The notes beneath the pieces were generated by a model. The model made no database searches. It was not told the DNA's origin and was given only the letters and a program-made list of their open reading frames with translations. A stretch of DNA of 63,736 nucleotides, counting the filler, from an uncultured Thermoplasmatales archaeon (GTDB lineage: Archaea > Thermoplasmatota > E2 > DHVEG-1): assembly GCA_964517155.1 (NCBI GenBank). It is 4 parts of 4 records of this genome, joined end to end, with 100 filler letters (N's around TTAATTAATTAA, not from the genome) between each part and the next. Parts side by side here need not be neighbours in the genome. Positions count along the whole stretch, not along the records: positions 1 to 28,466 come from CAZFAZ010000035.1; 3 more parts are not named here. One strand, given 5' to 3'. Position numbers and translations under genes: made by a program. Shown one piece after another: positions 3,149 through 43,985 of this stretch. Each line of letters opens with the position of its first letter. The stretch's first letter is position 1.

Positions 3149-3448
3149 ATGGATTACCAATCAAAGTATCAGTTAAATGTAAAAAAACACAAAAACATAG
3201 TCACCACTATATCATATCCAAAAGTTGGTGCTATGGGGAAAACAGGTACTTGGAGAGTATTCAAACCTATTCTTGATAAAGATAAATGTGTAAAATGTTT
3301 GAGGTGTTGGATATTTTGCCCGGAAGCAGTAATTTGGAGAAACGAAGATGATTCTGTAGATATTGATTATGATTATTGTAAGGGATGTGGTATTTGTGCA
3401 AATGTATGCCCTGTGAAGGCGATAAAGATGGTGAGGGAGAGTAAATGA
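3149..3448 (+). CDS. porD: 2-oxoacid:ferredoxin oxidoreductase delta-subunit-like 2x[4Fe-4S] protein
   Basis: KTGTWRVFKP, CVKCLRCWIFCPE, DYDYCKGCGICANVCP. Confidence 0.88.
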   Translation: MDYQSKYQLNVKKHKNIVTTISYPKVGAMGKTGTWRVFKPILDKDKCVKCLRCWIFCPEAVIWRNEDDSVDIDYDYCKGCGICANVCPVKAIKMVRESK

Positions 3449-4968
3449 AAGAATTAGAAAAAACATATTCAGTTTGCCCAGCATGTTATCAAGAAGGAAA
3501 AATCAAAAAAATTCCTGCTGAAATTGTTGAAGAAAATGGAAAAGTATGGATTACTAAAAAGTGTGATAAACATGGTTCTTTTAAAGAAATATATTTTGGT
3601 GACTCTGTATTATATAAAAAATGGATGAAATATAAGGTTACAGGTGGACCATCTCCAGATGTTAAAACTAAAATTTTTGATGAGCCTGCATTATATGATG
3701 AACATAAATCTCAGACTGTTTTGACGAATCTTTTGATTACCAATAGATGTAACCTTAGATGTAGCTATTGTTTTATGAATGCTGGTGCTACTGGATATAT
3801 CTATGAGCCTTCTCTTGATAAAATTAGAGACATGTTAATACAAGCAAGAAATGAGCACCCAATAGGTTCTAAAGCACTTCAGATTACAGGAGGAGAACCT
3901 ACTATAAGAGAAGACCTTTTTGAAATAATTGATATGGGCAAAGAACTTGGTTTTTCACATATTCAAGTAAATACTAATGGGATAAAACTTGCAGAAAGTA
4001 TAAAATATTGTCAACATCTGAAGGATAGGAAAGTAAATACGATCTATATGAGTTTCGATGGAATGACAAAGGAAACTAATCCTTGGATTGACCAAGCAAA
4101 ACAAGCAATAAAAAACTTGCGCAAGGTAGATCTAAAAGTTGTTCTTGTCCCTGTGTTAATTGGTGATAAAAATGTCCATGAAGCTGGAGATATTGTTAAA
4201 TTTGCTTTAGATAATATGGATATTGTACGTGGTGTAAATTTTCAGCCGATATCTTTTTGTGGTCGTGTTAGTAGGATTAATGATGAAAAACGTGAGAAAC
4301 AACGTGTAGATTATGTAAGTATGTTAGAAGTTATTGAAAAAAGATTCAATGGTCAAATCTCACGAGATGACTTTTACCCTGTACCCTTTGTATATCCTAT
4401 TTCAAAACTTATTGAAATACTTAAAGGTGAAACTCAGGTGGAGTTCACAGCACATCCGGGTTGCGGAGGAGCAACATACTTGTTTTATGAGGATGGTAAA
4501 GTCATACCTGTTACTCGTTTCATTGACGTTGAGGCTATGTTTAAATTCATAGATAGACAAAGCAAAATCAAAGGTCCTTTGAAAAAGATAAGAGTTGGCG
4601 CTGCATTTATGAAAAATATTGATAAATTTGTTGATTATGATAAGGCCCCCCATGGTTTTAATCTAAAAAAACTTTTAAAAGATGCAGCGATTGGTGGAAA
4701 TTACGATTCACTAAGGGGATTTCATTACAATAGTCTATTTGTTGGAAGTATGTGGTTCCAAGATGCATTTAACCTAAATGTTGACCGTTTACAACGATGT
4801 GTAATTCATTATGTAACAGAAGAAGGAATTGTTCCATTCTGTGCATATAATGGTCTTGGAATCGGTGATAAAATCCGTGAGAAATATTCAATTAAAATTA
4901 AAGAGTGGGAAGCCAAAGCGGGCAGGAAGATTAAAGAAGATTTATGGAAAGGAGGGCCTATCAGTTAA
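3445..4968 (+). CDS. tes: Radical SAM tetraether lipid synthase (Tes/GDGT-MAS, MJ0619 family)
   Basis: N-terminal SVCPAC...KCDKHG metal site, CNLRCSYC, TGGEPT, RGVNFQP, HPGCG, C-terminal RCVIHY...PFCAYN; 507 aa. Confidence 0.82.
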   Translation: MKELEKTYSVCPACYQEGKIKKIPAEIVEENGKVWITKKCDKHGSFKEIYFGDSVLYKKWMKYKVTGGPSPDVKTKIFDEPALYDEHKSQTVLTNLLITNRCNLRCSYCFMNAGATGYIYEPSLDKIRDMLIQARNEHPIGSKALQITGGEPTIREDLFEIIDMGKELGFSHIQVNTNGIKLAESIKYCQHLKDRKVNTIYMSFDGMTKETNPWIDQAKQAIKNLRKVDLKVVLVPVLIGDKNVHEAGDIVKFALDNMDIVRGVNFQPISFCGRVSRINDEKREKQRVDYVSMLEVIEKRFNGQISRDDFYPVPFVYPISKLIEILKGETQVEFTAHPGCGGATYLFYEDGKVIPVTRFIDVEAMFKFIDRQSKIKGPLKKIRVGAAFMKNIDKFVDYDKAPHGFNLKKLLKDAAIGGNYDSLRGFHYNSLFVGSMWFQDAFNLNVDRLQRCVIHYVTEEGIVPFCAYNGLGIGDKIREKYSIKIKEWEAKAGRKIKEDLWKGGPIS

Positions 4969-7708: not shown

Positions 7709-7772
7709 TACAGATAGATAACTTACGTTTGGATTTAAAATAATATTTAATGACAAAATAAATGTGATAATT

Positions 7773-8324
7773 ATGATAAATATTAAAGAATGGAGGGAAG
7801 ACATCGAAAGAGTTCGTAAAGAAAAAGATGTGTTCTTTGGCAGCGGTCATCCGCAATCACCAATACCACCTGATAGATTATTGCAGTTTAAAGGACTTAA
7901 TTATTATCCTCTAGATTCTAAGTACAGATTCGAGATTGCTCTTCATGAACATAAAGAAAAAAAATTATTAAAAGTAAAAGACTCAAAAGGAGGGGAACGT
8001 GAGTTAATTCGCTGGGGCGAATTCCGTTTCAAAATTGAGGATAAGAACTGCATACTTCAGACATATAAAAGTAGTCCTGCGGAAGAAAATGTATCTGTGC
8101 TTTTCCGTGATGCTACAAGCGGTAAGGAAACTTATGGAGCAGGACGTTATCTTGACCTTGAACCTGGAACACATCAAAATCCAGATGGAAAATGGATTCT
8201 CGATTTTAATTTAGCATATACTCCCTGGTGTGCATATAGTGAGAACTACGTATGTCCTTTTGTTCCACCTGAAAACTGGCTTGATGTTCCTGTTCTTGCT
8301 GGTGAGAAAATGTATAAACAATAA
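7773..8324 (+). CDS. DUF1684 family protein
   Basis: FRDATSGKETYGAGRYL, LDFNLAYTPWCAYS..YVCP..PPEN. Confidence 0.9.
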   Translation: MINIKEWREDIERVRKEKDVFFGSGHPQSPIPPDRLLQFKGLNYYPLDSKYRFEIALHEHKEKKLLKVKDSKGGERELIRWGEFRFKIEDKNCILQTYKSSPAEENVSVLFRDATSGKETYGAGRYLDLEPGTHQNPDGKWILDFNLAYTPWCAYSENYVCPFVPPENWLDVPVLAGEKMYKQ

Positions 8325-8375: not shown

Positions 8376-8813
8376 ATGATGGTTAAAAGATCAGAAAAAG
8401 CAAAAACGATGAGGAAGCTTATAAAAGCTATATGGGTTTTTAACTGGTTTAACTCCTGTGGATTTGCTGAATTGGTGCCAGTTGTGGGTTCTAGATGGGA
8501 TATGGAAAGATTTGGAATGATTATTGTTGGAACACCTCGACATGCTGACGTTTTATTTATTGCTGGTTATCAAACCCTTAAGTCAATCAAAAGAGCACAA
8601 AGAGTATACGAACAGATGGCTGAGCCTAGAGTTGTAATTGCTTTAGGTTCATGTACTATGACTGGTGGCATGTATTGGGATTCTTATAATACAATCAAGA
8701 GATTAGAGGATTATTTACCCGTTACTATGTATATACCAGGATGTCCACCTAGACCAGAAGCGGTATTTGAAGCCTGTGAGAAAATTTTTCAGCATGTAAA
8801 GGAGTTAGAATAA
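8376..8813 (+). CDS. NuoB/MbxJ-like Fe-S subunit
   Basis: WDMERFG, TPRHAD, YEQMAEPR, GSCTMTGG, YIPGCPPRPE. Confidence 0.9.
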   Translation: MMVKRSEKAKTMRKLIKAIWVFNWFNSCGFAELVPVVGSRWDMERFGMIIVGTPRHADVLFIAGYQTLKSIKRAQRVYEQMAEPRVVIALGSCTMTGGMYWDSYNTIKRLEDYLPVTMYIPGCPPRPEAVFEACEKIFQHVKELE

Positions 8814-8814
8814 A

Positions 8815-9318
8815 ATGGCCATAAAAGGAACTGAGTTAATCGATGAGATAAAATCCAAGTTTAAAGCTAATGGAATAATTCAGAGGGAACAAAGGATATG
8901 GATAACTACAGATGCAAATAAACTAATGGAGATGTGTACATGGCTAAAAGACCATGGATTTATTCATCTATCGATGATATCTGTTACCGATTGGTTAAAG
9001 GATAGGAATTATGAGGTTACCTATCATCTGTGGTCATACAATGATAAAATACTTGTTACTATAAAAACAAAAATTGGTAGAGAGAATCCAGTTATCAGCT
9101 CTGTAACTTCCATCTGGGGAGAGAACGCTCAGATACATGAACGCGAACTTCACGAATTATTTGGTGTAAAATTTGAGGGTAATCTTAATTTATCTCCCCT
9201 CTTTTTGGAGGATTGGGAAAATATGCCCCCATTCAGAAAGGATTTTGAATGGAGAGAATATGTGAGAGAAAAGTTTTATGATAAAAAAAATGAGAGAGAA
9301 AAGGTTTACTATGATTAA
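8815..9318 (+). CDS. NuoC/MbxK-like subunit
   Basis: HLSMISVTDW, ERELHELFGVKFEGN, PPFRKDF. Confidence 0.9.
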   Translation: MAIKGTELIDEIKSKFKANGIIQREQRIWITTDANKLMEMCTWLKDHGFIHLSMISVTDWLKDRNYEVTYHLWSYNDKILVTIKTKIGRENPVISSVTSIWGENAQIHERELHELFGVKFEGNLNLSPLFLEDWENMPPFRKDFEWREYVREKFYDKKNEREKVYYD

Positions 9319-10435
9319 TGAGATGGAACCTGCTCCTAAAGGCACAGAATATGATTTATATTTTGGTCCTGCGCATCCAGGGTCGGGTAACTTTGGTGTT
9401 AAATTAAAAATAGATGGAGAAGCAGTGGTATCTGCTGTAGCTGATCCTGGTTACTTACATAGAGGTTTTGAGAAGCTGATGGAATATAGAACACCATTAC
9501 AAAATGCTGTTCTATCTGATAGGCTTTGTGTACTGGAACCATTAAACTGGAATTTGATTCATGCTGAAGCAGTAGACGAGTTAATGGGCATTGATGTACC
9601 AGAACGGGCAAAATATATAAGAGTGATAATGGCAGAGCTTTCTAGGATTCAGTCTCATATTATTTGGTATGGTGTGTTTTCAATAGGTACCGGTTTTGAT
9701 ACCGGATTTAAAATGGCCTTTGGGTATAGAGACTATATATTAGATTTATTTGAGATGATAACAGGCGGGAGAGTATACCCTGCGGGTTATATATGTCCTG
9801 GTGGTGTGAGAAGGGATCTTCCAAATTGTGCAAAAGACAAGATACTCAAAGTTTTAGATAAAATAGATGAAATGATAAAACTTGAAGAGTTAGAAAATCC
9901 TGCTTTAACTGCTAGGGCAAAAGATGTTGGAGTTTTAAAAGCAGAAGATGCAATAAGGTTAGGGGCGACAGGACCTGTATTAAGGGGTTCAGGGATGAAT
10001 ACCGATGTAAGAAAAGATGAACCCTATGAAATATATGACAGATTAGACTTTGAGGTACCAGTAAGAAAAGAAGGAGATGCATATGCTAGATACATTATTG
10101 GGTTAGAAGAGATGAAACAATCGGTAAAAATTGTAAAACAAGCTTTGGAAAAGTTGCCAAAGGGAGATGTAATAGTACCATCTTTGAAAAAACCTAAACT
10201 CTCAGTTAAAATACCAAATGGTGAAGTGTATGTTAGAAATGAAATAGCAAGAGGAGAGGCAGCTATTTATATGGTAAGTGATGGAGGAAGCACGCCGTAC
10301 AGGTGTAAAATTAGGGGACCCGACTTTCTCCACATGATCCCTGTTCTTGAATATTTGTTAAAAGGGGCACAAATTGCGGATGTGCCAGCTGTTTATTGGA
10401 GTTTGAATATATGCCCTGCTGATATGGATAGGTGA
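9311..10435 (+). CDS. NuoD/MbxL-like subunit (not a NiFe hydrogenase)
   Basis: FGPAHP, GYLHRGFEK, DRLCVLE, ELSRIQSH, GPVLRGSG, EIARGE, C-terminus NICPADMDR. Confidence 0.9.
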   Translation: MINEMEPAPKGTEYDLYFGPAHPGSGNFGVKLKIDGEAVVSAVADPGYLHRGFEKLMEYRTPLQNAVLSDRLCVLEPLNWNLIHAEAVDELMGIDVPERAKYIRVIMAELSRIQSHIIWYGVFSIGTGFDTGFKMAFGYRDYILDLFEMITGGRVYPAGYICPGGVRRDLPNCAKDKILKVLDKIDEMIKLEELENPALTARAKDVGVLKAEDAIRLGATGPVLRGSGMNTDVRKDEPYEIYDRLDFEVPVRKEGDAYARYIIGLEEMKQSVKIVKQALEKLPKGDVIVPSLKKPKLSVKIPNGEVYVRNEIARGEAAIYMVSDGGSTPYRCKIRGPDFLHMIPVLEYLLKGAQIADVPAVYWSLNICPADMDR

Positions 10436-10439
10436 TATA

Positions 10440-10832
10440 ATGAAACTGGGAATATTAATAAAATTATTTCAAAATTTGTTTTCAAAACCTATGACTGTTA
10501 AATTTCCGCATGAATCAATTCCCATTCCTGATGGGTACAGAGGGGAACATGCATATGATATAGATAAATGTATAAGCTGTGGGCTGTGCGTAAATATATG
10601 TCCTAATCGGGCGATAGAGATGGTAGAAGCACCTAAAGAATATAAGGATAAGTGCCCAAAGACTTATCCGAAAATAGATCTTGGAAAATGTTGTTTCTGT
10701 GGCCTATGTGAAGATATATGTCCAAAGAATGCTATCTACTTAACAAAAAATTTTTACCTTTCAACTTTTGATAAAACCGATGTTATTAGAGCTCCCATTC
10801 CAAAAAAGGTAAATAAAAATATCACTAATTGA
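10440..10832 (+). CDS. NuoI/MbxN-like 2x[4Fe-4S] subunit
   Basis: PMTVKFP..YRG, CISCGLCVNICP, CCFCGLCEDICP. Confidence 0.9.
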   Translation: MKLGILIKLFQNLFSKPMTVKFPHESIPIPDGYRGEHAYDIDKCISCGLCVNICPNRAIEMVEAPKEYKDKCPKTYPKIDLGKCCFCGLCEDICPKNAIYLTKNFYLSTFDKTDVIRAPIPKKVNKNITN

Positions 10833-10921
10833 CGTAAATAAGTTGATAAATTATAAAAAATGTTAGAAATTAGCTCACAAAATATTGTGAAAAATATTTA
10901 GTGCAAAAGGAGGGCAAATTT

Positions 10922-13249
10922 ATGGGCGATACTAATAAAAATTCGAAAATTGGTGTATTTCTTTGTCATTGTGGAGACAATATAGCCGACACAGTTAATA
11001 TTAAAAAATTAAAGGATGAGCTTTCTAAAAATAAAGATCTTGTTGTAAAAGATCATCTTTTTTTGTGTTCTGAGTCTGGACAAAAGTCAATTTTAGAGAC
11101 TCTAGAGAAAGACAAAGATATAGATAGGGTTGTTGTGGCCAGTTGTTCTCCAAAACACCATTGGAATATATTCAAAAATTGTATCCAACAGAAATTAAAT
11201 CCCTATATGTGGGAAATGGCAAATATTAGAGAGCATTGTTCATGGGTTCATACTGATAAAGAAAAAGCAACAAAGAAAGCATTGGCAATAATTAGTGGAG
11301 CAATAAATAAGGTGAGATACCATGAGCCAATACTCAAAAAAGAAATTTCCTTAAATAGAGATGTTTTAGTAATAGGTGCAGGGATAGCAGGTATGCATGC
11401 TTCTTTGGAACTTGCAAATAAAGATTTTCATGTGTTTCTTGTAGAAAAAAGCCCTGCTATTGGTGGTAATATGACAAAACTTGGTAGAACGTTTCCAACT
11501 GATGATTGTTCTATGTGTACGGCGTCACCAATAATGAACGAGGTTAGTTCTCATCCAAATATTGATATGATGACACTATCTGAGCTTGTAGATTTTTCTG
11601 GAAGACCTGGTGAGTATGTTGCTACGGTTAAAACCCGCCCAAGGTATGTTGATCCGAGTAAATGTACTGGATGTGGTTTGTGTACTGAGAAATGTCCTGT
11701 TTCTATTCCATCAGAATATGAACTTGGATTAAAAGATACAAAAGCAATCCATATTCCTTTTGACTCCTGTGTTCCTGAAGTAGCTTTTATTGAATCTGAT
11801 GCATGTTTGAAAATAACAAAAAATAAATGTGGGGTATGTGAGAAGGTATGCCCTGCTGGTGCAATAGATTATAATCAGAAACCAAAAACAAAAAAAATAA
11901 AGATCGGTGCTGTAGTTGTAGCTACAGGTTATAAACAAATGGATTTATCAAATACAGAATATAATTTTGAGCACCCAGATGTTATAAATGGATTACAGTT
12001 AGAGCGAATGATAACTCCTGCTGGGCCAACAAAGGGAAAAATTCTTTGTCCAAGTAATGGCAAAGAGCCTAAAACAGTCACTTTTATACAATGTGCAGGT
12101 TCTAGAGACCAGAGACATCATGAGTATTGTTCAAATATATGTTGTATGTATTCAGCTAAAAATGCAAAGATTACTAGATCTAAACTCCCAGATGCTGAAA
12201 TCAATATGTGCTACATTGATATTAGAGCTCCTGGGAGAAGATATGAAGAATACTATCGCCAACTTAGAAAAAACAATATAAAAATGATTTTAGGAAGACC
12301 ATCTGAGATAATGGAAGATGCAGAGGGGAAACTATATTTTGACGTATTTGATAAATCTACAGATAAACTATTACAGATAAACTCTGACTTAATAGTCCTT
12401 GCAACAGCATTGGAACCATCTGAAGGTACCAAAGAGATGACTGCTTTGCTTAACTTGCCATATGGATTGGATGGTTTTATATCGCCTTTGCATATAAAAA
12501 TTGCCCCAGTAGATACAACTGTTGAGGGCATATATGTAGCTGGAACAGCAGAGGCTCCAAAATCGATACAGGACTGCATAACTGATGCATCTAGTGCAGC
12601 TAGTAGAGTTGCAACACTTTTAAAAAGTGATACATCAGTTATCGATTTGACAACTGCAGAGATTGATATGGATAAATGTACAAAATGTGGTAAATGTATC
12701 GAGGCTTGTAATTATTCTGCGATAACAAAGGATTATGAAATAATAGATATGGCTTGCAGAGGATGTGGAAAATGTGTGTCTGTCTGTCCAGAAGGGGCAA
12801 TCCAGATTAGGCATCTTACAACTGACCAACTTAGAAGTCAAATTGATGGGATTTTGTCAATTGAACCAGATTCCATCATCGCATATACTTCAGAGACATG
12901 TGGTTATAACGCTGCAGATATAGCGGGTGTTTCTAGATTAAAATATCCTAGCGATGTCAAAATTGTAAAAGTTCCTTGTGTAGGAAGACTAAGTATCGAT
13001 GATCTGGTATATCCTTTTGAGAAAAGTGCAAAAAGGGTAATGGTTGTAGCCTGCCCTGAAGGTTTATGTCATTATATTGATGGCACTGAAACAGCAAAAA
13101 AAGCAGTTGAAGAGGCAAAAAAGATACTTGATAAAAAAGGAATTGGAAGCGAAAAATTGCGTTTTGTTCCAATTGTTTCACCGGATGGACCAAAATTCCA
13201 GCAGATATGTATTGAAGAAAGTGAAAAATTAAGGGGGAAAAACACATGA
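10922..13249 (+). CDS. hdrA: Heterodisulfide reductase subunit A fused to C-terminal MvhD domain
   Basis: GVFLCHCG, VASCSP, NIREHCSW, GAGIAG, TFPTDDCSMC, QCAGSRD..YCSNICCMY; C-terminal AADIAG..YP..VPCVGR..ACPEGLCHY (MvhD). Confidence 0.95.
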   Translation: MGDTNKNSKIGVFLCHCGDNIADTVNIKKLKDELSKNKDLVVKDHLFLCSESGQKSILETLEKDKDIDRVVVASCSPKHHWNIFKNCIQQKLNPYMWEMANIREHCSWVHTDKEKATKKALAIISGAINKVRYHEPILKKEISLNRDVLVIGAGIAGMHASLELANKDFHVFLVEKSPAIGGNMTKLGRTFPTDDCSMCTASPIMNEVSSHPNIDMMTLSELVDFSGRPGEYVATVKTRPRYVDPSKCTGCGLCTEKCPVSIPSEYELGLKDTKAIHIPFDSCVPEVAFIESDACLKITKNKCGVCEKVCPAGAIDYNQKPKTKKIKIGAVVVATGYKQMDLSNTEYNFEHPDVINGLQLERMITPAGPTKGKILCPSNGKEPKTVTFIQCAGSRDQRHHEYCSNICCMYSAKNAKITRSKLPDAEINMCYIDIRAPGRRYEEYYRQLRKNNIKMILGRPSEIMEDAEGKLYFDVFDKSTDKLLQINSDLIVLATALEPSEGTKEMTALLNLPYGLDGFISPLHIKIAPVDTTVEGIYVAGTAEAPKSIQDCITDASSAASRVATLLKSDTSVIDLTTAEIDMDKCTKCGKCIEACNYSAITKDYEIIDMACRGCGKCVSVCPEGAIQIRHLTTDQLRSQIDGILSIEPDSIIAYTSETCGYNAADIAGVSRLKYPSDVKIVKVPCVGRLSIDDLVYPFEKSAKRVMVVACPEGLCHYIDGTETAKKAVEEAKKILDKKGIGSEKLRFVPIVSPDGPKFQQICIEESEKLRGKNT

Positions 13250-13782
13250 ATAACGGAATGACAGATCTTTTTAACATGTCAAAACCTGATAAAGAAAAAT
13301 ATAAAGATTTAGAAGAAGCGCTTTCAATAATTGGAATAGAATCACCAAATATATGCTATCAATGTTCTAAATGTACATCTGGATGCGAATCTATGAAACT
13401 ACTTGAACTTCAGCCGCATTCTATAATGGCATCAGCAAAAGATGGATTTATAGAAGAGATAATGCAATCAGATAAAATATGGGATTGCATTGGATGCTAT
13501 AAATGCGTTGAACGATGCCCACAAAAGATGAGCCCTGTTGACCTTATGTACATCATCAAAAATTGGTGTGTTACTTCAGGAAAACAATTACCTGGGGATT
13601 ACCAAAAATTACTACAAAATATTTTAACAAGTGGTTATACACAGAATATTTTAGATGTTAGTGATAAAAAAGATAAAACTTGGAACAGGTCTTCTTTGGG
13701 GTTACCAGAGCTAAAAGTCCCAAAAGATCAACAAAAATTTACTAAGGCTATTTCAGAGCTTGCAATGGAGAGTCTTATATGA
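13246..13782 (+). CDS. hdrC: Heterodisulfide reductase subunit C
   Basis: CYQCSKCTSGC, IWDCIGCYKCVERCP; ATGA overlap with hdrA. Confidence 0.92.
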   Translation: MNNGMTDLFNMSKPDKEKYKDLEEALSIIGIESPNICYQCSKCTSGCESMKLLELQPHSIMASAKDGFIEEIMQSDKIWDCIGCYKCVERCPQKMSPVDLMYIIKNWCVTSGKQLPGDYQKLLQNILTSGYTQNILDVSDKKDKTWNRSSLGLPELKVPKDQQKFTKAISELAMESLI

Positions 13783-14639
13783 AAGAAATGGGATTATATC
13801 TAGGTTGCACGATACCAACAGAGCAATATGGTTATGAGATGAGTATAAGAGAAATAATGCCTGACTTTGGTATAAAACTAGTTGATTTAGAAAACGTCTC
13901 GTGTTGTGGTGCCCCACTTCGAAGTATAAACCTTATGATGCAGATGTATCTCTCTGCTAGAAACATTGCTATATGTGAATCAAAAAATTTAGATATGTAT
14001 GCCCCATGTTCCCAGTGTCATCTTTCTCTTACTGAAACAATGAATCGTTTAAAAAATTCTGATAAACTACGTGAAAAGATTGCAAAAAAACTCATAGATG
14101 ATGAGGGACTAAAGTACACTGGTAATCTAACTATTTATCACACTTTGGATTTATTGTATGATGAAATAGGAATTAATTCTATCAAAAAAAAGGTAAAAAA
14201 ACCTATAAATTGGAATATAGCCTGTCATTATGGTTGTCATACAGTTAGATACAGTGATATCAAAAGGCCTGATAAAGCAGAACATCCAAATAAAATGGAA
14301 GAAATAATTAAAGCAATTGGAGGTAAAACACAGGATTATTCAGAAAAGCTTAACTGCTGTGGTGCACCATTAATGATTACGCATAAAGATTCAGCTCTTA
14401 CAAAAGCTGGAGAAAAAATTAGAGCAATACAAGATAGAAATTTTGATGCAATATCTATAGTTTGTCCTTTTGGGGGAAGAATGCTTGATTCAAAACAAAA
14501 AAAAGCAGCTGATACAATAGGTGAAAAACTAAACATACCTGTGTTTTATTTAACTCAGATTATAGGCTTAGCAATGAACAAGGACGAAGACAAATTAGGT
14601 CTTAATCTAAATTTAAGTTATAATAAAACCATAGGTTGA
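13779..14639 (+). CDS. hdrB: Heterodisulfide reductase subunit B (two CCG domains)
   Basis: YLGC, SCCG, CSQC, HYGCH, NCCG, CPFG. Confidence 0.93.
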   Translation: MKEMGLYLGCTIPTEQYGYEMSIREIMPDFGIKLVDLENVSCCGAPLRSINLMMQMYLSARNIAICESKNLDMYAPCSQCHLSLTETMNRLKNSDKLREKIAKKLIDDEGLKYTGNLTIYHTLDLLYDEIGINSIKKKVKKPINWNIACHYGCHTVRYSDIKRPDKAEHPNKMEEIIKAIGGKTQDYSEKLNCCGAPLMITHKDSALTKAGEKIRAIQDRNFDAISIVCPFGGRMLDSKQKKAADTIGEKLNIPVFYLTQIIGLAMNKDEDKLGLNLNLSYNKTIG

Positions 14640-14703: not shown

Positions 14704-15330
14704 ATGCCAAGAATTGAATCTTTTGAGGTATATAGCCAGGAATATGACAACTGGTTTGTTAGAAATAAAGATATTTATCATGCAGAAATTAATGCTATTA
14801 AACAAGTTATACCAAAAAATAAAAAGGGTGTTGAAATTGGTATTGGAACTGGTAGATTTGCCTTACCTCTAGGGATAAAAATTGGTGTTGAGCCTTCTAA
14901 AAAAATGACAGAAATATCAAAAAAACATGGTATAAAAGTTTATGAAGGAGTAGCAGAAAGACTACCTTTAGGTGATAAAACATTTGATTTTGTTCTCTTT
15001 GTTACGACAATATGTTTTGTAGATGATTTGACAAAATCATTTCAAGAGGCACATAGGGTTTTAAAAACGGATGGTTTTATTATTGTTGGTTTTGTAGATA
15101 AAGAAAGTGAATTAGGGATAAGATATCAGCTGAAAAGGGAAAAAAGTAAGTTCTATAAAAATGCTATTTTTTATTCAGTGAAAGAGGTTATAAATATTTT
15201 AAGAGAAACAAATTTTAAAGATATATTTATTAAACAAACAGTCTTTCCAATCAAAATTGGTAAATTAGATTCTATAGAAGACGGTTATGGCAAAGGAAGT
15301 TTTGTTGTAATAAAAGCCAATAAAAAATGA
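14704..15330 (+). CDS. Class I SAM-dependent methyltransferase
   Basis: EIGIGTGRF, VAERLP..DKTFD, RVLK.DG. Confidence 0.9.
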   Translation: MPRIESFEVYSQEYDNWFVRNKDIYHAEINAIKQVIPKNKKGVEIGIGTGRFALPLGIKIGVEPSKKMTEISKKHGIKVYEGVAERLPLGDKTFDFVLFVTTICFVDDLTKSFQEAHRVLKTDGFIIVGFVDKESELGIRYQLKREKSKFYKNAIFYSVKEVINILRETNFKDIFIKQTVFPIKIGKLDSIEDGYGKGSFVVIKANKK

Positions 15331-16321: not shown

Positions 16322-16756
16322 ATGCAAGTTAAAATAATACAAGTTGAAGGATTAACTTTTGTTGGAAAAGCAGATAGTAATCACTGGGTTACAATAGATG
16401 GACCTAAAGATTTTTATGGCTCAGAAGCTGCAGTTAGACCTACTGAACTGCTGTTAATATCTCTTGGCAGCTGTACTGCAAGTGATGTTGCATCGATTCT
16501 TAAAAAGAAACATGTAGATTTACAAAAATTTGAAGTAAATCTTACTGGAGAAAGAGCAAATGAGCATCCTAAAGTATTCACAAAAATAAACTTGGAGTAT
16601 ATTTTTACTGGTGAAAACCTAAAAGAGGAGGATATAAAAAGAGCAATTGAACTTTCTCAGGACAAATATTGTCCTATTGTATCTATGCTCAAAAAAACTG
16701 TTGAGATAACTTACACATATAAAATAAAAAATAGAAATAAAGAATATGGAAAATAA
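16322..16756 (+). CDS. OsmC/YhfA family protein
   Basis: RPTELLLISLGSCT, HPKVF, LSQDKYCPI. Confidence 0.9.
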   Translation: MQVKIIQVEGLTFVGKADSNHWVTIDGPKDFYGSEAAVRPTELLLISLGSCTASDVASILKKKHVDLQKFEVNLTGERANEHPKVFTKINLEYIFTGENLKEEDIKRAIELSQDKYCPIVSMLKKTVEITYTYKIKNRNKEYGK

Positions 16757-40011: not shown

Positions 40012-41067
40012 ATGCTTGGGTTTATCGGAGATTGTATTAGATTATTTAGAGTGCATCATATGGGCGCAATAGCTATAATTCCCGTATTGGGAGCAATTAG
40101 CCAAGGATGCTCTGATTTAACAAAACTATTTATTCTATTTATTATTGGCATGTTTTTGAATATTTTTCTTTTTGTATCAAATGATGTTGTAGACGCAAAA
40201 TTAGATCGAATGTCTAAATTATCAAGAGATTTTCATGTAAGAGCTATTTCTAAAGGAACTATATCAAAGAAAACGGGCGTATATCTCTCGATTATATCAG
40301 TCATCATTGCATATATTCTTTCTTTTTTGTTTTTTTATCGTGAAAACTTTTCATTTTATTTAGGTATTCTTGCTCTATCTGCAGGAATATCTCTTTGTAC
40401 ACTTTATAACTTATTTGGCAAACGATTCTTAAGTTCAGCATTTCTAGCATCTTTTGCAACGGGCCTAGGAGTTTTTTATGGTGCATATATGACAACAAAC
40501 AATAATGTTTTTAATGTTTATACCTGGCTTTTATTTGTTCTTGTTTTTAATTTTATGTTATTTCTAACAGCAGTAATCGGAGGGTTTAAAGATGCAGGAA
40601 ATGACTGCAAGCTAGATGGAAAAACTATTGCTATATTTTTAGGAGTAAAAATAGATGAGGGTAAAAAAACCGTAATTATCCCCGCCAGTTTTAAAGTCTT
40701 TACAATACTTTTAGAAATATCTTCAATTTTTATTTTGTTTTTACCCGTCTTATTAATGCACGAACATTATGAGTTTTGGAAATTGATTTTTATATTAATT
40801 TTAAGTATTGTTTCTTTAATCTTTATTTTTAAATTTTTAAAAATAAAAAGCTATAATAATCAAAAAGTATACAAAATACTTATACCTCTTATGGCAGTTA
40901 ACTCCATGTTTTTAGCACTTATATTGTTCCCAATAATTCCCGGGCATTATGTTTTGTTTCTAACACTTTTCCCGGGCATCTGGTTTGTAATAAATTTACC
41001 AATGTTACTACTTACAAAAAAATATTTACCCAAACCAAAGTTAGAACTCGGTGAAAAAAATATATGA
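40012..41067 (+). CDS. UbiA family prenyltransferase
   Basis: Polytopic; NDVVDAKLD and GGFKDAGND. Confidence 0.85.
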   Translation: MLGFIGDCIRLFRVHHMGAIAIIPVLGAISQGCSDLTKLFILFIIGMFLNIFLFVSNDVVDAKLDRMSKLSRDFHVRAISKGTISKKTGVYLSIISVIIAYILSFLFFYRENFSFYLGILALSAGISLCTLYNLFGKRFLSSAFLASFATGLGVFYGAYMTTNNNVFNVYTWLLFVLVFNFMLFLTAVIGGFKDAGNDCKLDGKTIAIFLGVKIDEGKKTVIIPASFKVFTILLEISSIFILFLPVLLMHEHYEFWKLIFILILSIVSLIFIFKFLKIKSYNNQKVYKILIPLMAVNSMFLALILFPIIPGHYVLFLTLFPGIWFVINLPMLLLTKKYLPKPKLELGEKNI

Positions 41068-41954
41068 ATGAGAAAATAAGAGAGTTTGTTAAGTTAATTC
41101 GATTATATCCTATGTTTTCTACGTTCATCGTATCCAGTTCTATCGTTACTACAAGCTATGTTTTAAACTCTTCACAACATATTATAAATCTGGAAATGTT
41201 ATTTTTGATTATTACTACAGTTTTTTCTTTGACAATTGCAACTGCTGCCTCAAATGTATTAAATCAAATCACTGATATAAAAGAAGATGAAATAACAAAA
41301 CCTTATCGTCCGATACCAAGTGGGAAAATTTCAATTAGAAAAGCTTTGATAATTTGCATAATATTTTACGTTATAGCAAGTATTATATCATTTTTAATAA
41401 ATCTATATTTTAGCTTATTTACACTCTTGTTTATTATTTTTACAATCACTTATTCAATTTATCCAAGAGTAAAAAAATTTTTTATCATAAATCAGCTGTG
41501 GATAGGTATTGCCAGAGGATGTTTTCTTATTTTGGCATCATGGAGTGTTTTTTCTAACCCACTTGAAAAAATGCCCTTAGCACTTTCAATTATAAGCTGT
41601 ATATTCATCTTTGGCGGCATGTCATCTAAAGATATTTTTGATGCAAAAGCAGATACAAAAACAGGTGTGAAAACACTTGTAAATGTAATTGGATTACAAA
41701 AAACCGCCACGCTTTCTTTATTTTTTATGACCGGGTCAATATTACTTATAATTCCCTTTATACTTCTTGACATTTTTAAATTAATTCATCTGCCCTTACT
41801 TTTTTTTATAATTCCTGTTTTTTACATTTACGTTCAGATGAAAAACTCAAAAAAATATAAAGTTTTTGAAAATGTAGCCGCATGGGTTATTATGCATGCT
41901 ACTAATTTTCTTTTTATTTTTTGTTTTGCAATATTAACTATAATATTCTCTTGA
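41064..41954 (+). CDS. UbiA family prenyltransferase (DGGGP-synthase/HPT-like motifs)
   Basis: NQITDIKED..KPYRPIPSG, KDIFDAKAD.KTGVKTL. Confidence 0.87.
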   Translation: MNEKIREFVKLIRLYPMFSTFIVSSSIVTTSYVLNSSQHIINLEMLFLIITTVFSLTIATAASNVLNQITDIKEDEITKPYRPIPSGKISIRKALIICIIFYVIASIISFLINLYFSLFTLLFIIFTITYSIYPRVKKFFIINQLWIGIARGCFLILASWSVFSNPLEKMPLALSIISCIFIFGGMSSKDIFDAKADTKTGVKTLVNVIGLQKTATLSLFFMTGSILLIIPFILLDIFKLIHLPLLFFIIPVFYIYVQMKNSKKYKVFENVAAWVIMHATNFLFIFCFAILTIIFS

Positions 41955-42956
41955 TTTGTTTAGAAATTTAATTAACTCCATACAAACTATATAACATAAA
42001 AAAGCAAATAAAACAAAAATTATTGTTTTTATTTCACCTATTATCGGAAATAAAAGCATTGGAACAACAACTGATCGGAAAATGATTTGAACAATTATGT
42101 TTTTTCTTAATTTTTCTCTATCATAATATCTAAATCTAAACATCTTAATAGTTGATATAATTACAATTAATGTAAAAATAAAAATTAAAAATATTTGCCA
42201 TATACTGTAATTCAACTTTAAAAAAAAGATAGGTGCACTAATAAGTATCGCAGAAAAAATACGTATACCCATTCCAAATGCAATAAAGCTTTTTGGAATT
42301 ATTAATTTTTTATCTGATTCATTTACAGTTACTCCCATTTTTGTTGCATAGTTTTTAACATTTTTTTTAAAATCATGATCTGCGTCTTTTATTCCTCCGC
42401 TTATCGCAGTCATAAAAAGAGTTTGTGTAAAAAATAGTAAAGAGATTGTTATCGTTATTTCATTTAGATGTATCGTATCTGATACCATGTATGCAGCATA
42501 AGGAATTATAAGTGCTTGTGCCCCTCCTGCAAGAAACGCTGAAAAAGCAAATTTTTTGCCATAAATATTATTTATTGTTCCAACTGTTGCTGCCAACGTC
42601 AAACAAATTAAACCAAGATAAAATGAAGAATTGTTTCTAAAAAAGAATAGAAATGTTAGAAGATACACCATTATAAAACAGAAAAATGAAATAAATATAC
42701 CTGTTTGTTTTGAAATGGTTCCTTTTACAAGAGGCCTAATCCTTAATTCCTCAACTTGTTTATCTACATCTATATCTACTACATCGTTTGATACAAACAG
42801 ATAGATATATTGCAATGTTCCTATTATAAATAAAAAAATTAAAGGAGTTATTTCCTTTATACCCGTACTCAGAGCACCTAGTAACGGCGTTATTGCAAAT
42901 AAACCAATACCTTGAAGCCTGAACAGGCGTATGTAATCAATAATTTTTTCTTTCAT
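41934..42956 (-). CDS. UbiA family prenyltransferase
   Basis: NDVVDIDVD..RPLVKG, GGIKDADHD. Confidence 0.87.
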   Translation of the reverse strand: MKEKIIDYIRLFRLQGIGLFAITPLLGALSTGIKEITPLIFLFIIGTLQYIYLFVSNDVVDIDVDKQVEELRIRPLVKGTISKQTGIFISFFCFIMVYLLTFLFFFRNNSSFYLGLICLTLAATVGTINNIYGKKFAFSAFLAGGAQALIIPYAAYMVSDTIHLNEITITISLLFFTQTLFMTAISGGIKDADHDFKKNVKNYATKMGVTVNESDKKLIIPKSFIAFGMGIRIFSAILISAPIFFLKLNYSIWQIFLIFIFTLIVIISTIKMFRFRYYDREKLRKNIIVQIIFRSVVVPMLLFPIIGEIKTIIFVLFAFLCYIVCMELIKFLNKSREYYS

Positions 42957-42962
42957 AGTAAT

Positions 42963-43985
42963 TTACATGGTTTTAGGTTCGAATATTGTTTTAAAAAGTA
43001 ATTTGTTCCATATTATAAATGCTAATGGTGGTATCAATACAATAATTCCGATTAGCGGGTTAAAAGTCATTAATATAACAGGCATTAGGCCATAGTTGAT
43101 AACATAGTGCAATCCTATTAGTTTTCGTGCTTTTGATCTTTTAAATTCTTTCATTTCAAGCAGGTTATATGATAACGTTAACATTATAAGAGCAATTATT
43201 CCAATTAGAGCCCATTGCACATACTTGATAGAGATTTGAGATGTTTGAAATTCAATTAATATAAAAAAGGGTAGAAAAGCAAGTCCGATATCTACTATTT
43301 GCAAAAGATATGCTAATGCTTTAAAACTTAATGGAACTGTTAATATTTTGTTTTTTACTTGTACGCCCATCTTCAAAGCAAGTGTTTTTCCACCTTGGAT
43401 ATAGTCGTTTTCAGCATCCTTTAATCCTCCTGTGATAAACTGCATATATAAAACCTGAATTGTACCAACAGCAGCTATAATCCAAGTTATCTGCGATAAA
43501 TTTGTAATATTTCCAGTTACAGTTGTTGCCCCATAGATAATTAAGAAAAATATTCCTGTTGTGACAAAGACATCCATACCTGGAAATTTTTTGCTGTATA
43601 AATCATAAATAGTTGCAAGAACTATAGAAATAGTGTATATTATTATAGGCAAATACATGTTTGTTTTTACTGCAAAATAAAATGTTATTAAATAAGCAAT
43701 TATTAAAGATAAAATTGTAAATATCCAAGCCTGTTTTATTGAAATTGTTCCAGTAATTAAAGGCCGATTTTTAATTTCTTTAGAATATTTATCTATTTTA
43801 TAATCTACAATATCATTTAATACAAATCCATAGGCATGGGAAAAAAAACCCAGTAAAAAAAGTAAAAAAAGTGTGAGTATATCAAATTGTTTTTCTGCAA
43901 GTGCACCCATCACGGCCATTAAACTAGTTAAAGTTCCACTGAAGGGTCTCATTAATTTCAAATACTCTAGCATGCTTTTTTTCAT
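42963..43985 (-). CDS. UbiA family prenyltransferase
   Basis: NDIVDYKID..RPLITG, YDLYSKK, GGLKDAEND. Confidence 0.87.
   Translation of the reverse strand: MKKSMLEYLKLMRPFSGTLTSLMAVMGALAEKQFDILTLFLLFLLGFFSHAYGFVLNDIVDYKIDKYSKEIKNRPLITGTISIKQAWIFTILSLIIAYLITFYFAVKTNMYLPIIIYTISIVLATIYDLYSKKFPGMDVFVTTGIFFLIIYGATTVTGNITNLSQITWIIAAVGTIQVLYMQFITGGLKDAENDYIQGGKTLALKMGVQVKNKILTVPLSFKALAYLLQIVDIGLAFLPFFILIEFQTSQISIKYVQWALIGIIALIMLTLSYNLLEMKEFKRSKARKLIGLHYVINYGLMPVILMTFNPLIGIIVLIPPLAFIIWNKLLFKTIFEPKTM

Follow-up and report, generated by a model that had tools for sequence, protein, structure and literature searches.

Described Systems Related to the Locus

In the MBS complex of Pyrococcus furiosus (PDB 6U8Y), a cluster held by three cysteines of the Cys28/Cys93/Cys123 type is the catalytic site; MbsJ Cys25 is not a ligand of this cluster, and a C25A mutant is still active (accessible part of PMC7684303). 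For the group 4d hydrogenase MBH (PDB 6CFW), a split between the Mbh membrane arm and the NiFe head was published for Thermoprofundales subgroup E (PMC9585477, main text in part). On the soluble side, HdrABC is known with MvhAGD or ElpABC as donor module (5ODC, 8RVU; PMC12350162, in part), and in DsrK of DsrMKJOP the ligand equivalent to HdrB Cys234, which in HdrB is the supernumerary ligand of HB1, the proximal non-cubane cluster, is Asp, the cluster is open and trisulfide is reduced (10.64898/2026.08.25.746951, in part). Precedents that bring a complex I-like pump together with Hdr are the headless Fpo with the Hdr subunit HdrD in Methanomassiliicoccales and, in like manner, Asgard group 4 hydrogenases for which an Hdr domain at the periphery is predicted (accessible parts of PMC7374477 and 10.1101/2024.07.04.601786). 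Here we describe a locus in a 63,736-nucleotide stretch of DNA (the window) from an uncultured Thermoplasmatales archaeon of sediments (assembly GCA_964517155.1), in which genes for J, K, L and N subunits are followed by hdrA-mvhD, hdrC and hdrB. We propose that JKLN is an exchangeable head that reduces S-S bonds on a single-pump Mbh-type arm, with a bifurcating Hdr as accessory, a reading from sequence comparison that we place slightly on the probable side.

A Nickel-Free Head Related to MBS

The best matches among solved structures are MBS chains for both L (6u8y_L, E 1e-90) and J (6u8y_J, E 4e-36). Together with the shared cysteine pattern this upholds the MBS-like identity given to the head in a preliminary description of the locus. 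The same description stated that the NuoD-like L keeps one cysteine of each NiFe CxxC and has no quinone-site tyrosine, and alignment agrees on both points: Cys84 and Cys379 of L align with MbsL Cys85 and Cys385, Cys84 sits at the tyrosine of the complex I RLDY/RMDY motif, and the quinone-binding His38 and Tyr87 are not present in L when it is aligned with 2fug_4. In J, Cys28, Cys93 and Cys123 are invariant in 37 aligned sequences and occupy the positions of the MbsJ cluster ligands; the proximal [4Fe-4S] cluster is thus predicted to be held by three cysteines. Where MbsJ reads FCTGCG, J reads WFNSCG and has no equivalent of the fourth cysteine, Cys25. The cluster loop of J is short as in MBS, unlike that of NiFe small subunits. 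Neither the NiFe hydrogenase motifs (two CxxC in L, one CxxC in J), which are present in a second head of this genome on contig C82 (RICGIC, DPCMSC), nor the marks of complex I and Fpo (tandem Cys-Cys in NuoB, the Tyr of RxDY in NuoD) were found in the window head. The N subunit retains an amphipathic N-terminal helix, with a hydrophobic moment of 0.44 compared to 0.54 in the hydrogenase N of the same genome. In complex I this helix touches the membrane.

The relatives of L form a sharp band at 65–91% identity, the next matches in the genomes reaching at most 47%, and their records are labelled Thermoplasmata, Dehalococcoidia, Altiarchaeota, Thermodesulfobacteriota and Thermotogae, among others. 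A careful tree built from 44 chosen rows, with which a fast tree of 153 rows agrees, shows them as a clade of their own (100/100), apart from NuoD and from NiFe subunits; the deepest branch of the clade is an arm-linked copy (L235). The phylogeny that had been suggested as a check places L beside the MBS clade (at only 93/46) and outside the MbsL clade itself. MBS was represented in this tree by operon-defined stand-ins (L051, L052), not by the P. furiosus sequence; the window L is 44% identical to the MBS-type L of G051/G053. The motifs of L and J are near-invariant across the clade, and a decayed hydrogenase was rejected on account of this invariance. One member by the tree (P0121, 59% identity) has lost the C-terminal cysteine (IYPGAIDR).

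The likeness to MBS thus extends to the J-K-L-N gene order, the half-cysteine pattern, the three cluster cysteines, the short loop and the missing quinone-site tyrosine. Differences are the lack of Cys25 in J, the separate clade of L, and the arm: that of the relatives of the window head has a single antiporter and an MbhI, in contrast to the H/H' arm of MBS, and the window head genes lie apart from any arm and are followed by hdrA-mvhD, hdrC and hdrB. An arm of the MBS type (two antiporters H and H', no MbhI) was not found in the source genome, which has one PF00361 match and an arm with MbhI. The head would act like an MBS head, but arm and tree set it outside MBS.

One Membrane Arm and Two Heads in the Source Genome

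The assembly of the source genome (G000; 1.59 Mb, 91 contigs, 90.8% complete) contains a single NuoH gene and a single antiporter gene. Both are part of a headless MbhA-B-C-D-E-F-G-H-I-M run on contig C49, of which I matches 6cfw_I only and M matches 6cfw_M best. Two 49-kDa subunits were observed, namely the window L and a true NiFe subunit in the JKLN set on C82, and neither adjoins the arm. This layout is the same as in the split group 4d MBH of Thermoprofundales subgroup E, with A-I and M on one contig and NiFe JKLN on another, and the arm is of the type used by relatives of the window head; the window head differs in having no nickel site. From this split architecture and the Thermoplasmata labels of the relatives we infer that the source genome belongs with Thermoprofundales subgroup E. 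In the accessible main text of PMC9585477 no word starts with 'Mbx', 'Hdr' or 'JKLN', and its sections 8 and 9 describe no second head.

The preliminary description had taken the head as membrane-arm-less and cytoplasmic, and had itself named an orphan arm elsewhere in the genome as evidence to the contrary. Such an arm is present on C49, 18 of the 49 other genomes have an orthologous head inside an operon of this arm type, and the window copy has kept nearly all positions conserved in these, as detailed below; this view is therefore not supported. The absence of a donor module, also claimed, applies to the locus itself, but mvhG-mvhA-mvhD is found on contig C31, which offers the fused MvhD a candidate donor of the conventional kind. 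C31 further encodes a hydrogenase of group 3b type and another hdrCBA set, with CPWC retained in its HdrB. The beta and gamma subunits of the group 3b hydrogenase (C31, 27988–29931) are seemingly fused in one open reading frame (ORF) of 647 aa.

Placement of the Head in Related Genomes

Arm operons containing this head were observed directly: among 49 other genomes with the head, it is part of an Mbh-type arm operon in 18, always with a single H where that region is shown. It stands directly before the Hdr paralog of the window in three, close to a gene with an HdrA or MvhD score in six (two of these are ParA/ferredoxin proteins), and near neither arm nor Hdr in 22, many of them at contig ends. 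In five genomes, G101 and four of Altiarchaeota (G076, G094, G096, G099 and G101 in all), no PF00346 gene other than that of this head was found. 'HdrA-like' neighbours in L064 and L232 were not counted as Hdr, the former being ParA/ferredoxin by scan and the latter alike in length with a weak match. NuoH is present in 39/43 and a further 5/5 carrier genomes, and three of the four without it have an antiporter gene.

Several operons carry both heads. The loci L067–L070, L077 and L095 contain a single A-H set, after which come I-JKLN-M and, further on, another I, the NiFe head and another M. In both L082 and L081 the window-type JKLN is inserted between hydrogenase K and L, and in L235 it precedes the whole mbh operon; these runs have one I and one M. 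In operons shared by both heads, I and M often occur as diverged duplicates. Of 345 columns with a conservation of 90% or more among the arm-linked copies, 337 are retained in the window copy, the loop of L after GPAH among them, and no fixed difference separates arm-linked from stand-alone JKLN copies. The operons, the column conservation and the N-terminal helix of N favour a head that may still bind the arm.

An Altered HdrB Next to HdrA-MvhD

The HdrB of the window has CPFGG where 5ODC has CPFCH. Cys234 is thus replaced by Gly, which is a new observation for this HdrB. The pair of five-cysteine non-cubane clusters was consequently not found, although all five distal-cluster cysteines and His154 are kept in the alignment with 5odc_B. 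CP[FY]GG occurs in 15/15 rows of the clade of this HdrB paralog (100/99), but Gly is also found in four rows outside and is therefore not exclusive. From the missing ligand the proximal cluster is predicted to be open. In HdrA, the counterparts of Glu356 and Lys409 of 5ODC, residues with a role in bifurcation, are conserved in the alignment, as are its Fe-S motifs. The MvhD domain keeps four [2Fe-2S] cysteines, with YT[ST]ETCGY in place of FLCNWCSY, and HdrC keeps two clusters. Mcr alpha was not found in the 90.8% complete genome, in line with the non-methanogen host that had been proposed.

HdrA residues, Fe-S motifs, MvhD cysteines and HdrC clusters are thus as in MvhAGD-HdrABC and ElpABC-HdrABC (5ODC, 8RVU; accessible part of PMC12350162). 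Here, in contrast, MvhD is fused, the operon has no donor module, HdrB lacks Cys234 and no Mcr was found. With DsrK, as far as described in the consulted part of 10.64898/2026.08.25.746951, the locus shares the replacement of the ligand equivalent to Cys234 (Asp in DsrK, Gly here), but DsrK has one non-cubane cluster whereas the window HdrB keeps its distal cluster, and the open cluster is in our case a prediction. The Fpo and Asgard precedents, in the accessible parts of their sources, have quinone-site or NiFe heads, and HdrD serves a methanogen as its terminal acceptor; the window pairs an MBS-like head with a full flavin-containing HdrABC.

Co-occurrence of Head and Hdr

The synteny of JKLN and hdr, which the preliminary description had proposed to survey, turned out to be a non-random link but a minority state (3/49 other genomes). 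Among 183 genomes of the class, the head occurs in 21, this HdrB paralog in eight and both in seven, from three families. The paralog is thereby found in 7/21 head carriers versus 1/162 others (Fisher p 7e-7, overstated as kin are not independent). In the eighth genome with the paralog (G020), hdrA is cut by the contig end and no head was found. The link is real and one-way: genomes with the paralog nearly all carry the head, but only a third of those with the head carry the paralog. In addition, 14 metagenome contigs carry a close HdrA-MvhD ortholog. Seven of these have the head and the other seven hold just 1–1571 bases upstream, with other genes coming first upstream of hdrA in two of them (L199, L200).

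Head and Hdr adjoin directly in the source genome, L048, L083, L231 and the metagenome loci L203, L204, L206, L207 and L208, with N-hdrA gaps of 7 to 89 bp; one gene lies between them in L205 and six in L201, and G115 has them on separate contigs, its N being followed by other genes. TATA-like words are present in the gaps of the window, L203 and L231. A less strict TATA-like pattern has a frequency of 3.35 per kb and strand in the source genome. A bacterial promoter scan gave 37 sites against 36.6 expected, using a bacterial model on an archaeal host. The window gap also has an inverted repeat (TCACAA-N4-TTGTGA, 10875–10890), located after the TATA-like word and ahead of the hdrA start, which is not seen in eight related gaps compared.

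Other arrangements around the head were noted as well. In L048 (11720–14850) an AMP-binding ligase and EtfB/EtfA genes are directly upstream of JKLN-hdrA/mvhD-hdrB, after which a second hdrCBA-mvhD-mvhG set follows. In L062 and L063 the head lies beside a cluster of the order mvhD-hdrA-hdrA-x-(anaerobic sulfite reductase-like ferredoxin)-mvhD, from which a thioredoxin (L062) or DsrE (L063) gene separates it; this second association with HdrA looks independent. In L059 (= L043) three genes immediately precede the head: an HdrA-like gene of great length, one for an extended MvhD and an HdrA-like gene of 1009 aa.

An unlikely alternative to an accessory Hdr is that the head is a ferredoxin-fed S-S reductase, on the arm or alone, and that Hdr is merely a co-regulated neighbour in a shuffled redox island which shares the ferredoxin pool only. 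Genes for radical SAM (6/49), methyltransferase (3/49), DUF1684 (3/49) and OsmC (2/49) proteins also recur near the head in the other genomes, and the separate contigs of G115, the six intervening genes of L201, the TATA-like words and the paralog of G020, where no head was found, point the same way. It is opposed by direct adjacency in three families, without those neighbours in L048 and L083, by the HdrB and L trees, which both set L048/L083 apart from the group of the window and are consistent with long joint inheritance, and by the contig end that cuts hdrA of G020.

Secondly, as in the preliminary description, the head could belong to a soluble JKLN-MvhD-HdrABC complex, in which JKLN replaces MvhAG on the fused MvhD or draws low-potential electrons from HdrA, sulfane-sulfur chemistry is linked to flavin bifurcation and no ions are pumped. 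We regard this as unlikely, since no JKLN residue is specific to the 9–10 Hdr-linked copies, membrane-facing features are kept, two thirds of the carriers do not have this Hdr, MvhAG is encoded elsewhere in the genome, and no L fusion was found among longer proteins at E 1e-100, a weak search. On the other hand, such a complex would account for direct adjacency in several loci with gaps as short as 7 and 33 bp (L048 and L204), for the head in 7/8 genomes with this HdrB, for the changed surface of the fused MvhD, and for the other HdrA/MvhD genes flanking the head in L059, L062 and L063. Non-hydrogenase donors are moreover known to use MvhD-like adaptors, as in Elp-Hdr (PMC12350162, in part). 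Distance from membrane genes does not add to this case, because the arm is headless regardless of the window head.

Proposed Energy Conservation

We return to the reading in which JKLN is the S-S-reducing head of an Mbh-type arm; docking, substrate, direction and the wiring of Hdr are here proposals. The window head likely alternates on the arm with the hydrogen-making head, if the sequence features described above are a guide, and the neighbouring HdrA-MvhD, HdrC and HdrB are probably an accessory electron supplier, not partners in a purely soluble enzyme. As in MBS, electrons would enter at N and travel through a pair of [4Fe-4S] clusters until they reach the open iron in J. J, L and N would bind MbhM and MbhI of the C49 arm, which would combine MBS-type chemistry with a one-pump MBH-type arm, and an S-S bond would be reduced at the open iron with ferredoxin-level electrons, driving ion pumping. 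H2 oxidized by MvhAG (C31) could deliver electrons to the fused MvhD, after which the HdrA flavin would bifurcate them. The low-potential electron may reach N via ferredoxin or directly, and the high-potential electron would pass to HdrCB, where the altered proximal cluster may act on a persulfide, a trisulfide or a disulfide other than CoM-S-S-CoB. The wiring from H2 over MvhAG and HdrA to N and HdrCB is the weakest of these steps. A distinctly unlikely extension is a supercomplex with HdrA-MvhD on N as bifurcating input in place of the NADH module of complex I, the exchangeable nickel-free head being mounted on a one-pump Mrp arm; the open-iron sites of J and HdrB would cleave sulfane sulfur, and one H2-fed machine would reduce two S-S bonds and pump ions. 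If so, head plus arm would be a living intermediate between MBH and MBS.

Several observations weigh against an arm-docked sulfur reductase with an accessory Hdr. Firstly, the arm is headless across the family with or without a window-type head; in the single-contig genome G004 it lies at ~1.78 Mb and the NiFe head at ~1.09 Mb, about 0.7 Mb apart. As a headless arm is normal in the family, the orphan arm is fully explained by the hydrogenase and is not specific evidence for the window head, and the idea that a headless arm proves partnership was rejected by this control. Trees of M and I mostly track the host lineage and give no indication which head the C49 arm serves. Secondly, the diverged I and M duplicates hint that a dedicated anchor helps, and the source genome has none. 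Thirdly, operation away from the membrane is chemically possible: the soluble JKLN subcomplex of MBS (C-MBS) is active in vitro (accessible part of PMC7684303), and split arm and NiFe head are reported to be able to work independently (PMC9585477, main text in part), two points that would also suit a soluble complex. Fourthly, the L clade stands beside the MBS clade and not inside it, with a sister support of only 93/46, TusA was not found in the source genome, and G061 carries a canonical MBS, a window-type head and a headless Mbh arm, so that the substrate of the window-type head may differ from that of MBS. Lastly, 14/21 head carriers do not have this Hdr paralog, and as radical SAM genes are commoner near the head than this Hdr, island hitchhiking may add to the synteny. 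The locus L188 of G061 shows the end of the canonical MBS operon as H, H', M, J with FCTGCG, K and L.

A non-sulfur acceptor of the arm-docked head (such as a membrane-soluble carrier or a protein-bound group), or a reverse run in which the ion gradient yields reduced ferredoxin, is improbable, as L lacks the quinone-site tyrosine and the second histidine of the complex I loop and keeps both MbsL cysteines, and the MBS cluster loop is kept, even though the clade is separate with invariant motifs of its own, co-occurs with MBS in G061, has no conserved sulfur-carrier neighbour among 69 scanned (DsrE in L063, TusA in L098 and thioredoxin in L062 only), and provides the sole 49-kDa subunit seen in the four Altiarchaeota genomes. 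Altiarchaeota are autotrophs that need reduced ferredoxin.

Gene Organization of the Locus

The window consists of four contigs joined by N gaps, and the JKLN-hdr locus lies wholly in the first (1–28466). Gene families were assigned by Pfam/NCBIfam. All seven ORFs of the preliminary description, J-K-L-N and then hdrA-mvhD, hdrC and hdrB, were recovered on the + strand at the places given for them, as were the upstream DUF1684 gene, the 89-bp gap between the N stop and the hdrA ATG, and the TATA-like word (Table 1). A family search likewise confirmed that the locus has no membrane-arm, mvhAG, fdh or flx gene.

Table 1. Coordinates of the genes and motifs of the JKLN-hdr locus (positions in the window) and of the arm and NiFe head elsewhere in the genome (positions in the contig named).
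Feature	Position	Strand	Assignment and remarks
DUF1684 gene, upstream of J	7764–8324		Pfam
J subunit, NuoB/MbsJ-like, 145 aa	8376–8813	+	PF01058; best PDB match 6u8y_J
WFNSCG motif of J	8445–8462	+	Phe25 at the place of non-ligating MbsJ Cys25
K subunit, NuoC-like, 167 aa	8815–9318	+	PF00329
L subunit, NuoD/MbsL-like, 385 aa (374 aa if ATG 9311)	9278–10435	+	PF00346; 6u8y_L
DRLCVLE of L (Cys84)	9518–9538	+	Half of NiFe CxxC
NICPAD of L (Cys379)	10406–10423	+	Half of NiFe CxxC
N subunit, NuoI-like, 130 aa, two [4Fe-4S] motifs	10440–10832	+	TIGR01971; alignment
N-hdrA gap, 89 bp	10833–10921	+	TATA-like TTATAAAA at 10851–10858; GGAGG ahead of hdrA start
HdrA with fused C-terminal MvhD, 775 aa	10922–13249 (ATG start; MvhD from ~12872)	+	NF040770, PF02662; aligned to 8rvu, 5odc, 9sfi
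HdrC, 178 aa, two [4Fe-4S] motifs	13246–13782	+	TIGR03290 below its cut-off
HdrB, 286 aa, two CCG domains	13779–14639	+	PF02754; 5odc_B alignment
CPFGG motif of HdrB	14463–14477	+	Gly for Cys234, supernumerary ligand of proximal non-cubane cluster HB1
Headless MbhA-I,M arm (L194)	C49 41034–46623
NiFe JKLN (L195), beside hypE	C82 733–3390

Downstream, a radical SAM gene (PF04055, 15335–16312) could encode a maturation factor or be an island passenger. The DUF1684 gene, a methyltransferase gene (14704–15330) and an OsmC gene (16322–16756) recur round the head in shuffled order in the family members L064, L089, L205 and L231–L234. Elsewhere in the window, a gene for the tetraether lipid synthase Tes (3445–4968; NF045702 above cut-off) directly follows a lone porD-like ferredoxin gene, and two convergent pairs make up four UbiA-family prenyltransferase genes (40012–43985).

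Implications

No description of this head clade or of a JKLN-Hdr pairing was found in the literature, subscription papers and supplements being outside the scope of the search, and the clade is not described in the accessible parts of PMC8813620, PMC10356935, PMC13197434, 10.1101/2023.11.21.568159 and PMC8165549. Ehr proteins without metal-binding cysteines were reported from CPR genomes, but the part of PMC7304191 that was available does not show them to be this clade. If the proposed role of the head is true, one membrane arm could be fitted with a head that evolves hydrogen or with one that reduces sulfur. This would give a reason for the published split of arm and head in Thermoprofundales. 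It would also open sulfur respiration to sediment archaea and bacteria that are now read as fermenters or as bearers of complex I.

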